A stretch of 55,655 bases of DNA from assembly GCA_039024555.1 (NCBI GenBank), contig JBCCQQ010000044.1:1-55655 (forward strand), given 5' to 3'. The position numbers were made by a program, and so were the translations under genes. A model generated the notes under the pieces. It was not told the origin of the DNA. It saw nothing but the letters and a program-made list of their open reading frames with translations, and did no database searches. The DNA comes from Cyanobacteria bacterium P01_D01_bin.156. GTDB lineage: Bacteria > Cyanobacteriota > Cyanobacteriia > Phormidesmidales > Phormidesmidaceae. Of the stretch, positions 7,841 to 13,553 are shown piece after piece; within the stretch, counting starts at the first letter, position 1, and every line of letters begins with the position of its first letter.

Positions 7841-8371
7841 ATGCGATCCATTCTTAGCGGTCTAGGTTTAATGGGTGTATTGCTAGGATTGGCGATGCCC
7901 GTATCAGCTGAGGTGCTGTTACAGGCGGGTGCCACGGAAGCTAAATTAGTGACTTCTGAGGCGCATCGTTCTTTTCGGCATCGGCTAACGGCGGAAGCTG
8001 GGCAAACGGTGGCGATTAAGCTGAAGTTAGCGAATAATAATCCAGGTATTGTTAGCCAGGTGGCAGTTTATGCAGAAGGTAAAGCTACACCGTTGGCTGT
8101 GAACAACCAGATAAACTATCGCACGATTGATGCTAATCAAAAGTCTCAAATTAGCCATCTAATTGTGCTGACATTGCCTGCGGATCGGGGTAGTGGTCGG
8201 GTGACCTACGAGATCGAGCCGCTATTTGATTATGATAATTCTCCTCAGTTTACTGTGGACTCAGTAGCGGAATCTACAGTTGACTATATGCCTTCTACAG
8301 TGCGCTATCAGATGACTGTGGAAACGGCAACAGTTTCTCAACAGTTGTTGTTGGAGGCTCAGGTAAATTAG
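7841..8371 (+). CDS. Secreted hypothetical protein
   Basis: AGGAG RBS; signal peptide ending AMPVSA; beta-rich body. Confidence 0.6.
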   Translation: MRSILSGLGLMGVLLGLAMPVSAEVLLQAGATEAKLVTSEAHRSFRHRLTAEAGQTVAIKLKLANNNPGIVSQVAVYAEGKATPLAVNNQINYRTIDANQKSQISHLIVLTLPADRGSGRVTYEIEPLFDYDNSPQFTVDSVAESTVDYMPSTVRYQMTVETATVSQQLLLEAQVN

Positions 8372-8529: not shown

Positions 8530-8611
8530 CGTTAATGGGGAGCTGGGCGGCGGTCAATATTTCTGCATCAAGTCGGACTGTAATCCCGTCCGCTCCTGCG
8601 TAGAGTTAGAC
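8530..8611 (-). other. attC site of the ATPase/DUF4435 cassette (R' core mutated)
   Basis: GTCTAAC-tctac-GCAGGAGC-GGAC...GCCCAGC-tcccc-ATTAACG; the gene stop TAA lies inside R''; close paralog of 10789-10873. Confidence 0.75.
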
Positions 8612-9499
8612 GGCAGTATCAGGGGGATTTCCCGTGCCCACATCAGGACTACGATGGTCTTCGAAGACGACAGAATCAATACTTACCTTATAGTAATCAT
8701 AGTGTGGATGTGTAGGGTCAAACATACTTTCAAAAGCGAGAAACAAGCTGTTAAAAAACATTTCCTTCGAAATTGATACGCTAGTTCTCAATTCTTCCGT
8801 TTTTACTTTTATCAGACGAAAAGCAGCTGACATCAGGAAATGTCCGAGAATCACATCCAAGATCTTTAGTCCCTGTAATCCCAAATTAGTGTAGATTTTT
8901 GCCTGCTGTTCTTTGCTAATTTCTATTGGTAAGTTGTCAAGATAGCTGTTAATTTTTTGTTCGCATAGCTCACATGAGTTTTTAGATTTCATAAATCGAT
9001 CACTATTACTAGGGATAACCGCATGCCCTAGTTTCTCTTCATCATTAATAATGGCGTATAAAATCAGAGGAGATACTTTCTTCTCTAGTTCATAAAGCCA
9101 TTCCTGCGATAGATTTTCTGGGATGTCACGGTCTTGAACTCTACAAACCGTACGTAATAATTTGTTTATAACTGAGTTAGTAATTATAGTATTCTCGATG
9201 GAGTAGCCAAAGGTCGAAATTATATTTGTATGATGATATTGTCGGGATATGAGTTTATCAAAATCTGAGTCTATAGCTATAAGATAATTTGCCTGCCCAG
9301 AAATTACTTCGTCAATATACTTCTTGATTTCTTCCTTACCGCCAACCTCTTCAATTCTGACGGAAAAACGACTTAGCTTTTGGAAGACAAACTCCCAAAA
9401 TAGAATATCGTCATCACCTTCAACATAGAGCATTTTTTCAACTCTATGGAATAGATTGAGAACATTTCTAGCTTCACCAGAGTATATAAGATTAGACAT
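8606..9499 (-). CDS. DUF4435/TOPRIM nuclease, AriB-like (PARIS-like system)
   Basis: Start MSNLIYSGEARNVL overlaps the ATPase stop by 8 nt; TOPRIM motifs YVEGDDD, IAIDSDFD, GYSIEN. Confidence 0.8.
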   Translation of the reverse strand: MSNLIYSGEARNVLNLFHRVEKMLYVEGDDDILFWEFVFQKLSRFSVRIEEVGGKEEIKKYIDEVISGQANYLIAIDSDFDKLISRQYHHTNIISTFGYSIENTIITNSVINKLLRTVCRVQDRDIPENLSQEWLYELEKKVSPLILYAIINDEEKLGHAVIPSNSDRFMKSKNSCELCEQKINSYLDNLPIEISKEQQAKIYTNLGLQGLKILDVILGHFLMSAAFRLIKVKTEELRTSVSISKEMFFNSLFLAFESMFDPTHPHYDYYKVSIDSVVFEDHRSPDVGTGNPPDTAV

Positions 9500-10757
9500 G
9501 GACGAGTTCCTCCATGTCAAAGATGAAATCACGATATTTAGAAGCAACCTCAGGAGAGTGTGTTGCTACTATCACCTGAGCATTAGGATTTATCTGTCGG
9601 GCAGCTGGTATGATCTCTCTTTGCCATGCAACATGCAAAGATAATTCTGGCTCATCTGCTAGAAAAATATGTGGATGTTGATTTTGAAGAAGTGCTTCAA
9701 CCAACAAAATAATTAATTGCTTTTCACCAGAAGAAAGGCGGGTATGATCTATCTGCCCCGAATCGTTCGAAATAACTAACTTTCCTGAAGTAAACTTGAA
9801 TTCTTTGTCAAAAACGAATTCCTCTATTATCTTGAGGAACAACTCCAACTGAGAGTAAATTTCTTGAGTTTTCTCTTTCGCCTCTAATGATAAATCTATT
9901 ATTCGACGTGTTTTTCGGAGTGCTTCTAGTGGCTTTATGTCAATTGCTTGATAACTGCTTTTTTGTGGCAGACTTTCATCCTTTCCTATTTTTTGGATAA
10001 CATTATCGATTGAGTTAACGTGAAAGTTTATTTTTTCGTCAATGCCTTCATTAAAAGAGTTGAGTTGTTTATATGCAGAAATCAGTTTTTCCCTTTCTTC
10101 GTCTCTGTCGAAGTCAGATGGATTCGCACTATCAGTTGCATCTTCTTCCCCATATAAAATCGAGGCTAAAACGTCTGCTTGCAACCGCTCTGAGATTCCA
10201 CTTGCCTGTTGCGCTAATTCTAACTGAAATTGGGTAAGTCCTTGTAAAGCTTGACTTAGGCGATAATCAACAGGAGAAATAATTCTTGATCCGTACCGAT
10301 CTTTTACTTCATATTCATCATCATTACGAAGCCGATAGACTGATAGAGAGGCAACTGATACCAAAGCTCCTAGCTGGTTGCGAATTTCAAGAGATTCTTC
10401 TAGGAGTTTACGTCGGAGTGAATAGGGGATTCTCTTATCTTCTGTGCTTCTCAAGCGAAACCGTTTTTTCTGCCCAGATATTTCATATTCTGCTACAGGA
10501 TAAGGATCATCTTCTATTTTCTGTACTCGAATTGTACGCTTATCTTGTTCCTTGGATAACAGAATAGTTACGGACTCAAAGTCATTTTCTGCTAATTCAG
10601 TGACGTCCGCTGTTAATACAGCATGCAAGATATTCATGAATGTTGTCTTGCCTGTGCCGTTTCTTCCTATGATGATGTTGACATCAGAATTAAAGCTGCA
10701 TTGAGCATTAAATTGCTGCCAAAATCCATCAATTTCTACACTTTCAATTTTGTACAA
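9492..10757 (-). CDS. ABC/AAA_21-type ATPase, AriA-like (PARIS-like system)
   Basis: TTG start after GGAGG; Walker A GRNGTGKTT, signature LSSGEKQ, Walker B/D-loop FLADEPELSLH, H-loop ATHSP. Confidence 0.85.
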   Translation of the reverse strand: MYKIESVEIDGFWQQFNAQCSFNSDVNIIIGRNGTGKTTFMNILHAVLTADVTELAENDFESVTILLSKEQDKRTIRVQKIEDDPYPVAEYEISGQKKRFRLRSTEDKRIPYSLRRKLLEESLEIRNQLGALVSVASLSVYRLRNDDEYEVKDRYGSRIISPVDYRLSQALQGLTQFQLELAQQASGISERLQADVLASILYGEEDATDSANPSDFDRDEEREKLISAYKQLNSFNEGIDEKINFHVNSIDNVIQKIGKDESLPQKSSYQAIDIKPLEALRKTRRIIDLSLEAKEKTQEIYSQLELFLKIIEEFVFDKEFKFTSGKLVISNDSGQIDHTRLSSGEKQLIILLVEALLQNQHPHIFLADEPELSLHVAWQREIIPAARQINPNAQVIVATHSPEVASKYRDFIFDMEELVHV

Positions 10758-10788
10758 GTTAACCCTCCCTTTTTCTTTTAGCTTAACG

Positions 10789-10873
10789 GTCTAACGTGGC
10801 GCTGAGCGGTGGCCAGTAGCTTTATATCGATACCTGGATTGTAAATTCCGTCCGCTCCTGCATTATGTTAGCT
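10789..10873 (-). other. attC integron cassette recombination site (85 bp)
   Basis: AGCTAAC-ataat-GCAGGAGC-GGAC...GCTCAGC-gccac-GTTAGAC: R''/L''(8 nt)/L'(7 nt)/R' with 5-nt spacers; the DUF4238 stop codon lies in R''. Confidence 0.85.
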
Positions 10874-12085
10874 AGAGTTTGCTGAGAACCAATATGATCT
10901 CATAATTGATGGCTCATCAGGATAAAGACTGACGCTATACAAACGTAAATGCCGCGTACCTCCAATCTCGATACCATCTTTATAGTAATGAACGACTTCA
11001 ATGACCTCATCTTGAGCAATATCATGTAAGGTATCTAAATCTTTTGTCCAAAACTGGATTTCTGGTTGAAGCGGATGATTATCAAGGCGCTTATACTTAT
11101 CAATATTTAGATGGTATCTAGACTTTTCTGTATAGACTAGAAATCGAATTCCTTCTATTGATCCAGATTTACTAGTATTCCTAATAAATTGAATCGCAAA
11201 ATCTTGGTCTTCTCCGTAAGGCTTTGGCTTGTGAGAAATCAGTATAGATTCAGCATTGAGATTTGTCAGTATATTCATACTGAAAGGAAAGCTCGGATCT
11301 TTATTTTCTACCCAAACACATCTCGTGTTATTTGGTAGGCGAATAAGTGGTGAAGATATGACAGCGATCGTAGGCGTAAGAGGGCAGTAACATAAGAAAT
11401 TCTTCTCATTAGTAAGAGTTTTTTCATATGTCCAAACTTTTGGGATACCAAACTTGTGTAACTCATCTATATGGAAGAATTGATAAGTTACTGGATTGTC
11501 TGACGAGAAAAAAGTCACTTTGCTACTGTTGACAATGAAGATAAGTCCGGCATGAAGTATTAATGAGGATATTATTCCAGCCGAATAAATCATTTGCTTT
11601 TTAGCTGCTTCGTGAGAACCTCGCCAAAATTGATCTGAAACGGTTTGATTTTGATTATTGAATTGATCGATATGCCGATACACATCTTCCACTTCATCGA
11701 CAAAACCTTGAATATTATCGAGGTTCGACGGAATGCGATGAAATAGTGTATCCATAAATAAAGCGATGTAAGCTAAATCTTCCTCTGTCAAAGAAATTTT
11801 TTTCGATATTTTTTGAAGAATTGAGGGATACTTTCTTTCAATTTTTGATAAAAACTCTTCAATCAGTGGGAGTTTATTTATATCTTCATCAAGATTATAA
11901 AAGTAGGATTTCCATAGAATATTACTTGGAGCTTTTCGTTTTGGCTTTGATGTAAGCGACTTTTCAATAACCCATACAGACGCTTCGAAAGGAATATGTT
12001 CTGGTATTTCATCCGGTCGAACAGGATCTATAAAAGCTTTTAAGTAAATCCTAGGTACTATATGTTGCTTTTTCTTTTGAACCAT
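10868..12085 (-). CDS. DUF4238 domain protein
   Basis: N-terminal KQHIVPRIYLKAF, IEEFLSKIE, FFSSDNPV, CPLTP; AT-rich. Confidence 0.8.
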   Translation of the reverse strand: MVQKKKQHIVPRIYLKAFIDPVRPDEIPEHIPFEASVWVIEKSLTSKPKRKAPSNILWKSYFYNLDEDINKLPLIEEFLSKIERKYPSILQKISKKISLTEEDLAYIALFMDTLFHRIPSNLDNIQGFVDEVEDVYRHIDQFNNQNQTVSDQFWRGSHEAAKKQMIYSAGIISSLILHAGLIFIVNSSKVTFFSSDNPVTYQFFHIDELHKFGIPKVWTYEKTLTNEKNFLCYCPLTPTIAVISSPLIRLPNNTRCVWVENKDPSFPFSMNILTNLNAESILISHKPKPYGEDQDFAIQFIRNTSKSGSIEGIRFLVYTEKSRYHLNIDKYKRLDNHPLQPEIQFWTKDLDTLHDIAQDEVIEVVHYYKDGIEIGGTRHLRLYSVSLYPDEPSIMRSYWFSANSS

Positions 12086-12164
12086 ATGAGCAAATAACTC
12101 GAAAAGTAAAGAATAAATCCTTTACGTGTTTGTTCAGCCATCTTCCTCACCGGGAAATAAAGCT

Positions 12165-12183
12165 AGCTAACTATTTATTAGAG
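12165..12183 (-). other. attI-like simple site
   Basis: CTCTAAT-AAATA-GTTAGCT, same geometry as attI1 CCCTAAA-ACAAA-GTTAGGC; GTTAGCTAG is a 9-nt exact complement of the downstream attC R'' region. Confidence 0.7.
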
Positions 12184-12322
12184 GGAAACTTTCTGCCTAA
12201 TTCCCCTATACGGGTGATTATATAGAAATTCTTCCACCTAATACCCCCAAATAGATGGTTAGGTGGAAATCTGTCAGCCTAAACACCTTATATGGATGAT
12301 TAGGTGGATAAGTTCAGTCTAA
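12178..12322. repeat. Four imperfect 23-24 bp palindromes at 40-41 bp period next to attI
   Basis: TTAGAGGGAAACTTTCTGCCTAA (12178), TTATATAGAAATTCTTCCACCTAA (12218), TTAGGTGGAAATCTGTCAGCCTAA (12259), TTAGGTGGATAAGTTCAGTCTAA (12300). Confidence 0.8.
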
Positions 12323-12328
12323 GCAAGG

Positions 12329-12360
12329 CCATAACTGAAGCTAGGACACTTCAGTTATGG
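12329..12360. terminator. Hairpin, possible terminator of the fic gene
   Basis: CCATAACTGAAG-8nt-CTTCAGTTATGG perfect 12-bp stem downstream of fic. Confidence 0.5.
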
Positions 12361-12434
12361 ACCAATATCTACTGAGGATTGGCACACCATTCTGTGAAAT
12401 TAATCCGTTGCCTCTGTTCTGAAAAATCATATGC

Positions 12435-13553
12435 TCAACGAGAGATCTCCTCATTAGTCGCCAGACGATAGCTTGTACTTCTCCCACCACCAGAATTTCG
12501 AATAAAAACACCTCGTGCTACAAAATCCTGAATATCCCGTAACGCCGTATCTGTAGAACACTTAGCCAATTTGGCATATTTCGAAGTCGTCATATGCCCC
12601 TTAAAATTTTCCAGCATACGATTCAAAATCAATTGCTGTCGTTCATTCACCGGTTGCCGGTTTGCATAATTCCACAGCTCTGTCTTGTAAAGTACATGGG
12701 CTAAAGTTTCATTCGCACTTGCCAACGCCCGTCCTAAACAATCCAAAAACCAATCCAGCCAGCCTGTCACATCAACCGTACCTCGCTGTTGTCGCTCCAG
12801 CTGTGTGTAGTACTCCTTTCGTTCCAGCTCGATCTGGGCAGACATGCTGTAAAAACGCTCAGCTAAATTATCCGCCCGTGCTAATGCCATATCAGCAATC
12901 GCCCGAGCAATACGACCATTGCCATCTTCAAATGGATGAATTGTCACAAACCACAAATGGGCTAGCCCCGCTTTCAAGATTGGATCTATGGCTTGTTCTT
13001 CCTTAAACCAGGCTAAAAATATCGACATTTCCGCCTCTACCCTGGCTGCAATGGGAGCCTCAAAATGAATTGTTTCACGGCTAATCGGTCCTGAAATAAT
13101 CTGCATCGCACCAGCCGATTCTGGTCGCCAACCCCCAACAGTAATCTCGTGCATGCCACTCCAGCCCGTCGGAAACAATGCCGCATGCCAGCCAAATAGC
13201 CGTTCCCTTGTTAGGGGAACATCATAATTTTGAGTAGCATCTAACATCACCTCAACAATGCCGTCTACATCGCGACTGGTGGGCAGCAAACCACCGATAT
13301 CAATCCCTAGCCGTTGGGCAATTGATGACCGCACCACATCAGGATTTAGCACAGCCCCTTCAATAGCTGAAGACTTGACCACTTCATTGGTTAAAACCTT
13401 CAGGCTGGTTTCCTGCTGTAAATCAAACCCTAAGTTTGTCATTCGGCCTAGCAGCCAGCCTTGCCGATAGCGAATGTCTGCCAGCTTTGCTGATAATAGC
13501 GAGCTATCCCAATTAAATGTGGGCCAATCTGGGTGTTCGTAAATCCAGGTCAT
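12435..13553 (-). CDS. Fic family protein (DUF4172 + Fic + C-terminal wHTH)
   Basis: MTWIYEHPDWPTFNWD, SSAIEG, canonical HPFEDGNGRIAR, C-terminal YAKLAKCSTDTALRDI...GGGRSTSY. Confidence 0.92.
   Translation of the reverse strand: MTWIYEHPDWPTFNWDSSLLSAKLADIRYRQGWLLGRMTNLGFDLQQETSLKVLTNEVVKSSAIEGAVLNPDVVRSSIAQRLGIDIGGLLPTSRDVDGIVEVMLDATQNYDVPLTRERLFGWHAALFPTGWSGMHEITVGGWRPESAGAMQIISGPISRETIHFEAPIAARVEAEMSIFLAWFKEEQAIDPILKAGLAHLWFVTIHPFEDGNGRIARAIADMALARADNLAERFYSMSAQIELERKEYYTQLERQQRGTVDVTGWLDWFLDCLGRALASANETLAHVLYKTELWNYANRQPVNERQQLILNRMLENFKGHMTTSKYAKLAKCSTDTALRDIQDFVARGVFIRNSGGGRSTSYRLATNEEISR

Follow-up and report, generated by a model that had tools for sequence, protein, structure and literature searches.

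Clusters of attC sites without an integron integrase (CALINs) are defined in Cury et al. 2016 without recourse to attI, which is described there as not searchable in most integrons (PMC4889954). In a preprint on small CALINs and single attC sites lacking an integrase (SALINs), ~95% of CALINs are placed far from pseudogenes of the integrase gene intI, and insertion at genomic sites (attG) is proposed (10.1101/2022.09.11.507474). Decay of intI is reported to be common (PMC2426708), and mobilization of CALIN cassettes in trans has been raised as a possibility (PMC4889954, PMC9668308, 10.1101/2025.06.18.660453). An attI site is generally recognized by its cognate integrase, IntI (PMC4792948), and integrons have been cited as defense stores (PMC12614218). 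Here we describe a locus on the minus strand of a 55,655-nt contig of Cyanobacteria bacterium P01_D01_bin.156 (JBCCQQ010000044.1; this whole stretch is hereafter the window), where an attI site heads two cassettes carrying the two-gene system PARIS and a DUF4238 gene. By homology and site structure, the locus is an integrase-less integron docking site, consisting of an authentic attI and two IntI-inserted cassettes, and it is a variant of the CALIN as published (PMC4889954). We put at about 0.6 the probability that this attI lost its intI, was later filled in trans by an integrase of one clade (P) that is now absent, and is probably orphaned today.

The attI core, attC sites and cassette boundaries

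A prediction made from the letters alone (the original prediction) had placed an attI-geometry site, two attC sites and two cassettes between positions 8530 and 12322, and all of these elements are present there on the minus strand. The attI core (12183-12165) reads CTCTAAT-AAATA-GTTAGCT, comprising an L box, a 5-bp spacer and the G|TT, with the crossover between 12171 and 12170. It is followed by cassette 1 (1376 bp, 12170-10795) with attC1 (85 bp, 10873-10789), and by cassette 2 (2259 bp, 10794-8536) with attC2 (82 bp, 8611-8530). Both attC sites show the predicted box spacing of 7-5-8...7-5-7, and the stop codon of the terminal gene falls within R'' in each (TAA at 10870-10868 and 8608-8606). 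The first bases of each cassette are exactly complementary to its own R'', along 9 nt in cassette 1 and along 7 nt in cassette 2, just as had been read from the sequence.

Generic geometry scanners proved either too strict (5 matches) or too noisy (461), and we used hidden Markov model (HMM) and covariance model searches instead. Our own covariance model, trained on 17 attC sites from intI-linked arrays of other genomes, returned three matches in the window at E ≤ 1: attC1 (70.8 bits, E 4e-17), attC2 (50.9 bits, E 1e-11) and a third at E 0.91, such that the two predicted sites are the only significant ones. A run of this kind had been proposed in the original prediction; it is not a fully independent test, because the 17 sites were located via an HMM seeded partly on sites of this genome. 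Across the attC family, 97.6% of the stem is paired, with 37 double changes and none of 500 shuffles as high, for a structure drawn from the same alignment. attC1 is intact, and its bottom strand folds into an R/L stem; the folding energies of the attC sites show no excess stability over shuffles (z -1.1 to +0.4). The locus thus holds the two or more attC sites by which a CALIN is called. As predicted for a solo attI, no TIGR02249 or PF00589 match is found on the window contig, which sets the locus apart from complete integrons with their adjacent intI. An Rfam search of the window gave no matches.

At one position the prediction did not hold: R' of attC2 reads A|TT rather than GTT, the form found in homologous cassettes elsewhere (run X4 and locus L145, described below). 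Since partner sites must match in their first base to recombine (PMC2811028), attC2 is predicted to recombine poorly. The cargo had also been described as AT-rich, and it is (36-38% GC in the cassettes, 46% in the window). That it is free of HIP1 sites is likewise true (0 in 3635 bp of cassette DNA) but weak evidence, as 20% of 6158 equal-sized windows of the genome also contain none.

An attI module shared with complete integrons

The core terminates a 157-bp module (12325-12169, minus strand; HMM score 138 bits) with homology to the stretch between intI and attI in complete integrons (L038, L039, L040, L073 and L153). Compared with the attI interval of a complete integron, it is 77% identical over 157 bp, ending exactly at G|TT. 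Conservation within the family stops at this point, and GTT is found there in 25 of 30 loci that were chosen without requiring it. The site therefore combines the two features by which we recognize an attI, homology to an intI-adjacent site and an L-5bp-GTT core.

Three 41-bp inverted-box units make up the module, with R-like boxes (TTAG; at 12322, 12282, 12241 and 12200) alternating with L-like boxes (TAAT/TAAC; at 12302, 12261 and 12220) at a period of 40-41 bp. In place of the third L-like box stands a TATAAT hexamer (12222-12217, minus strand), which could act as a -10 element. Modules of this type, which we call P (the labels P, B, C and F for attI/IntI families were coined in this analysis), sit divergently upstream of intact intI genes of a single clade, also P, whose members are 89-98% identical to each other, and every other IntI clade carries its own repeat-box module. 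Because the boxes change together with the IntI clade, we take them to be candidate accessory IntI binding sites that would confer clade specificity. Across 34 solo modules, box columns are more conserved than spacers (0.90 vs 0.77), though the rows are related and the pattern may predate intI loss. A reading of the module as a miniature inverted-repeat transposable element or a repetitive extragenic palindrome (MITE/REP) was dropped once it had been found beside intI.

The module is widespread. It is matched in 20 of 22 genomes of the genus and, with up to three candidates scored per genome, in at least 44 of 251 genomes and at least 28 of 124 genera sampled across the class. The exact core pattern occurs at 38 loci in named records, for example in Nodosilinea, Phormidesmis, Halomicronema, Almyronema and Sphaerothrix. 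In two P arrays (L040 and L073), the attI or the first cassette is immediately followed by 31-37 bp of a B-type attI delimited by G|TT, which suggests cross-clade recombination at an accessory box.

Cassettes and their cargo

Cassette 2 encodes an AriA-like ABC ATPase (421 aa, 9492..10757, minus strand; PADLOC AriA E 5e-42), which retains the Walker A, signature, Walker B and H-loop motifs, and an AriB-like DUF4435 protein (297 aa, 8606..9499, minus strand; PADLOC AriB E 2e-25), with the start of ariB overlapping the stop of ariA. PARIS has been defined by an AAA_15 score of at least 32 bits or an AAA_21 score of at least 27 bits, together with an adjacent DUF4435 of at least 27 bits (PMC9122126); the corresponding scores here are 70, 70.1 and 95.5 bits (PF14491). 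The AriB protein has no sequence match in the PDB, and one AriA relative (L146, 71%) lies outside any cassette. The gene in cassette 1 specifies a DUF4238 protein (405 aa, 10868..12085, minus strand; PF14022, 99 bits), a putative single-gene anti-phage system. In E. coli, protection against T7 has been shown for one DUF4238 protein (Rousset et al. 2022, PMC9122126). The protein in cassette 1 has no PADLOC match, and its predicted structure is poor (mean confidence score, pLDDT, 58), with no fold match at E ≤ 0.001. Its relatives in the genome contigs went unseen with a single query; an alignment query found nine loci, of which the one close relative (60%) has no attC or attI matches. By domain content, then, the cargo is PARIS (AriA/AriB) plus a DUF4238 gene, both from families that are antiviral in E. 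coli, and it would presumably act against phages in this host as well, PARIS by abortive infection once a phage protein is sensed.

The cassettes are real mobile units, as judged by where homology begins and ends. Contigs from three sequencing runs (X2, X3 and X4), which belong to two studies distinct from the possible source run, cover only 8539-10796, diverging from the window at both ends. No junction of an excised circle is seen in the contigs, nor would one be expected there. In X2, the PARIS cassette directly follows a P-type attI; it comes after a different attC-like sequence in X3 and X4; and L145 carries it behind a 36-bp attI piece, with 91.6% identity over 10795-8540. This cassette is therefore found in three different upstream contexts, all of which switch at G|TT, in agreement with the predicted point of insertion. 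In one X2 contig, 10790 is linked to 12167 and precisely the 1376 bp of cassette 1 are missing; at this junction the intervening letters are marked not known and the short side is 34 bases. This exact absence is what shows cassette 1 to be mobile and, along with the PARIS cassette standing alone with the same ends in X2-X4 and L145, suggests that cassette 2 is the older insertion and cassette 1 the later one. The L145 copy (L145:925-3218, with its 36-bp mini-attI) lies beside a resolvase-like gene in a record labeled Cyclobacteriaceae, reflecting either cross-phylum transfer or mis-binning. The 176-bp tail beyond attC2 has no homolog among the loci compared or in the genome.

Loading of solo P sites in trans in relatives

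Evidence of loading in trans comes from a related genome (G002), in which a 185-bp cassette without an open reading frame (ORF) is present in six 100%-identical copies, all at the G|TT of its four P modules and none elsewhere. One of these modules is that of a complete integron; the other three are solo, one of them 0.9 Mb distant and two on a different scaffold, and at two of the four the cassette stands in tandem. The solo modules are 71-79% identical to that of the complete integron, and the full B module that we fetched from the same genome lacks the cassette. Two of the solo sites share flanks (84%), and so their origins are not independent. In-trans loading of solo P sites in G002 is thus well supported at the level of sequence. 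The 185-bp cassette (L073, L087, L088 and L089) has a long attC, and relatives of it (L096 and L055, 86-93%) stand first at P modules in two other genomes; it appears to behave like a selfish cassette.

Cassette gain is also visible at orthologous intI-less sites in G005, in G031 and on contig C104 of the window's own genome (G000). These share 1.2 kb of upstream sequence (81-87%), and beyond G|TT their similarity is no higher than background. The first cassette is HEC-01 in G005 and SoFic-like in G031, and the same older cassette follows in both. An element common to five C-type sites in G033 was considered as a sign of IntI activity and rejected, as it is a group II intron (RF00029). It lies right after the attI R box at these sites (L072 and L189-L192) and also occurs at L200 and L139; the copies viewed are apparently ORF-less, and L190 has it in tandem.

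attI modules and integrases in the genome of the window

The original prediction had called for a genome-wide search for intI and for further attI and attC copies, and such a search finds all three. The assembly is 99% complete in 149 contigs, with the window as contig C44. Its attI modules with the G|TT intact number at least 11 and represent four families (P on C44, C104 and C106; B on C49, C16 and C5; C on C102 and C21; F on C20, twice, and C34); decayed modules are present as well. With 150 of 1474 candidates scored, there are at least 20 attC matches on at least 14 contigs. Of 14 loci with attC, eight stand behind a full module; a decayed module heads one more, and a bare attI-like core another. 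Three of the rest are on short contigs or at contig ends, and one is weak.

The sole intact intI of this genome, on C49, is full length and scores above the TIGR02249 cut-off; a repeated sequence resembling an insertion sequence (IS) breaks up the C92 gene near its 5' end, and the C102 gene is split. The C49 IntI shares 60-61% identity with the P clade and has an attI family of its own (B), with solo copies on C16 and C5. Because the only intact integrase belongs to a different clade, the window site is probably orphaned now. The first cassette behind the C49 attI (L184:343-1477) carries an mCpol and CARF-TM pair, and the next a Tse2-like ADP-ribosyltransferase domain.

Loss of intI from P modules

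Solo modules are the rule in the P family. After removal of 12 duplicates we compared 74 P loci, of which 64 had at least 1.3 kb of upstream sequence and 10 were too short. Upstream of the 64 lies an intact intI in 6, a large broken piece in 6, a stub in 11 and nothing in 41, and the deletions end at different points. Solo modules also occur in single-contig genomes (G219, G025 and G090), and so the absent intI is not an assembly gap; G090 has no intI match at E ≤ 1e-12 despite its solo module. A conserved ORF of ~99 aa may mark a mobile unit: it recurs beyond the 3' end of intI or upstream of solo modules, and the outer flanks of these loci differ (L039, L042, L057, L060, L061 and L190).

History of the window locus

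In the history that we favor, the window module would have lost its adjacent intI by deletion and would then have been filled in trans by a P-clade integrase, with PARIS entering first and DUF4238 after it; the site would now be orphaned, with the P-clade integrase no longer in the assembly. The original prediction had proposed a comparison with related strains. The interval between the convergent gene at 7841-8371 and phzF is empty in three of them (G002, G005 and G009) and variable in others, and the comparison marks the neighborhood of the locus as an insertion hotspot. In two other species (G003 and G012) an intI-less module, decayed in both, follows the same Fic-family gene that lies upstream of the window module. 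At four-fold sites, the PARIS cassette differs from that of L145 by 0.12-0.16, whereas Fic and phzF differ from those of G003 and G012 by 0.84-1.24. Provided that the Fic-linked modules are orthologs, an integrase was at work at the window locus after intI had been lost, and it is along these lines that we infer the timing of events.

Several observations count against this history. Orthology of the Fic-linked modules is unproven, as their spacers are not alignable (p 0.12 and 0.73) and their tree is not resolved, and the module in G012 has a GTG core and no attC; the comparison with related strains therefore bears out the variable interval and the module behind Fic, and leaves the link between those modules unproven. 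What may remain of the intI side at the window locus is only ~26 nt (12355..12379, minus strand, from local alignment). This possible promoter-side remnant aligns to all four same-genus complete integrons (shuffle p 0.003-0.02) and to none of four from other genera. A scan for sigma-70-type promoters, such as a Pc driving the cassettes, found 0 sites over 12080-12450, where the TATAAT at 12222-12217 stands alone. No P-clade intI is present in G000, where the best matches are 61-70% identical, and no identical cassette is common to several modules among the arrays compared in G000, G009, G015, G017, G032, G264 and G203.

Were the locus instead a frozen CALIN relic, with both cassettes inserted while intI was adjacent and the array inert since its loss, the missing cognate IntI, the lost G of attC2 and the unproven link to G003 and G012 would all be expected, and intI decay is common enough (PMC2426708; 41 of 64 P loci have no intI). 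We consider this unlikely, given that the PARIS cassette is far closer to copies elsewhere than the flanks are to G003 and G012, that the attI core and attC1 are intact, and that solo sites of the P family demonstrably gain cassettes in relatives. Less probable again is arrival of module and cassettes as one block, whether through natural transformation, by transposition or because IntI recombined an upstream accessory box. Fragments of attI do travel (L145, L122 and L127 keep the last ~30 bp, from the TT of the proximal accessory box), B-type fragments lie inside P arrays, module-bearing units are duplicated in G033, and PARIS is already behind a P attI in X2 and L145. However, the window module is full length with a possible promoter-side remnant upstream, a module stands behind Fic in two other species, and the homology of full modules starts at scattered points from about -145 to -168 rather than at one base.

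The strict form of the earlier idea, in which the resident C49 integrase serves the window site now, fares slightly worse still, and we regard it as doubtful. That enzyme is full length and above the TIGR02249 cut-off, and cross-type attI chimeras exist, but its distance from the P clade (60-61% identity) and its own attI family with solo copies on C16 and C5 speak against such service, as do the new cassette of G002, found in four of four P modules and not in the fetched full B module, and the lack of any cassette common to C49 and P sites. Loading in trans by an integrase encoded elsewhere, as originally envisaged, is thus borne out for P-family solo sites in relatives, but not for the integrase now in G000 (C49, of another clade at 61%). 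Insertion at chance genomic attG sites, with a merely coincidental attI geometry, has been proposed for small CALINs and SALINs (10.1101/2022.09.11.507474); here it is ruled out by the homology of the module to the attI of complete integrons (77% over its length, up to the exact G|TT), leaving it a negligible chance.

Neighboring features

Upstream of the module lies a Fic-family gene (DUF4172, Fic and helix-turn-helix domains by Pfam; 12435..13553, minus strand), which at 47% GC is not a cassette. It matches PADLOC SoFic at E 8e-41 but scores under the cut-off of the NCBIfam SoFic model, and it might feed read-through transcription into the array. Between this gene and the module is a perfect hairpin with 12-bp arms (12329..12360), the only one of its kind in the genome, whose ends resemble R''/R' boxes; it was not called as a terminator, and a promoter and terminator scan at the module gave no calls. 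At the array's opposite side, the convergent gene at 7841-8371 encodes 176 aa, compared with 184-289 aa in relatives, and may be 3'-truncated beside the array. In G003, a complete C-type integron lies near the ortholog of this gene (L026, G003:C52), and in G015 TIR-like genes without attC lie upstream of phzF (L034, G015:C15).

Cargo of other arrays

We scanned 78 of 84 array ORFs with PADLOC at E ≤ 1e-5. In relatives, whose 20 solo P arrays supplied 48 of these ORFs, 10 matched (AbiTii, ApeA, HEC-01, SoFic-like and others), as did 2 of 30 in the other arrays of G000; the remaining ORFs include GNAT, glyoxalase, PIN and oxidoreductase genes. Defense cargo is common but not exclusive at solo sites. 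The proposed role of these sites as landing pads for anti-phage genes accordingly fits the window locus, but describes only part of what such arrays hold in relatives.

Discussion

CALINs, intI decay and defense cassettes are already known, and taken singly the window locus is ordinary; its family context is what makes integrase action on unlinked attI sites visible. At stake is the origin of small integrase-less arrays. Here their attI is recognizable and heads most small arrays of the genome; the sites fall into clade-specific families, and in one relative the same cassette has entered four unlinked sites. This is evidence from natural genomes for a long-assumed process, the loading of solo attI in trans by IntI, and it offers concrete IntI/attI pairs for the study of specificity along with an extended attI architecture. 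Anti-phage systems are also seen moving as cassettes in cyanobacteria.

These observations lead us to propose, with only slightly better than even confidence, a distributed integron, in which clade-coded attI modules, a dozen or more of them and scattered across the genome, would outlive intI and be refilled in one sweep by any cognate IntI in the cell. Many small CALINs and SALINs would then be live insertion sites, exploited by ORF-less selfish cassettes and group II introns. Our literature search, which covered sources other than subscription papers and supplements, found no description of multi-copy solo attI modules in cyanobacteria, of a shared-integrase layout or of this repeat architecture; PMC8876359 and PMC7923331 contained nothing bearing on the subject.

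Compared with known systems, the putative PARIS and DUF4238 systems resemble those described in PMC9122126, with an ATPase and DUF4435 pair above the thresholds and a single DUF4238 gene, and differ in being integron cassettes of a cyanobacterium. Like attI1 of class 1 integrons, the window attI has an L-R core, a G|TT crossover and extra boxes upstream, consistent with cognate IntI-attI pairing, but attI1 spans ~65 bp with two direct repeats (PMC4792948), as opposed to ~157 bp and three 41-bp units here, in which inverted boxes alternate. The delta-attI cassettes of class 1 and 2 integrons are attI fragments moved by IntI, even across classes, as may be the pieces in L145, L122, L127, L040 and L073; they sit inside arrays in place of attC, whereas the window module is of full length and stands at the head of its own array (PMC12901181). 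As in the SALIN/attG arrays of 10.1101/2022.09.11.507474, the array is small, isolated and far from a recognizable intI pseudogene, yet its target is a conserved attI module of the kind that heads 8 of 14 attC loci in this genome. Finally, unlike CALINs as they are defined (PMC4889954), the window array is headed by a full attI, and such sites in relatives receive cassettes in addition to donating them.

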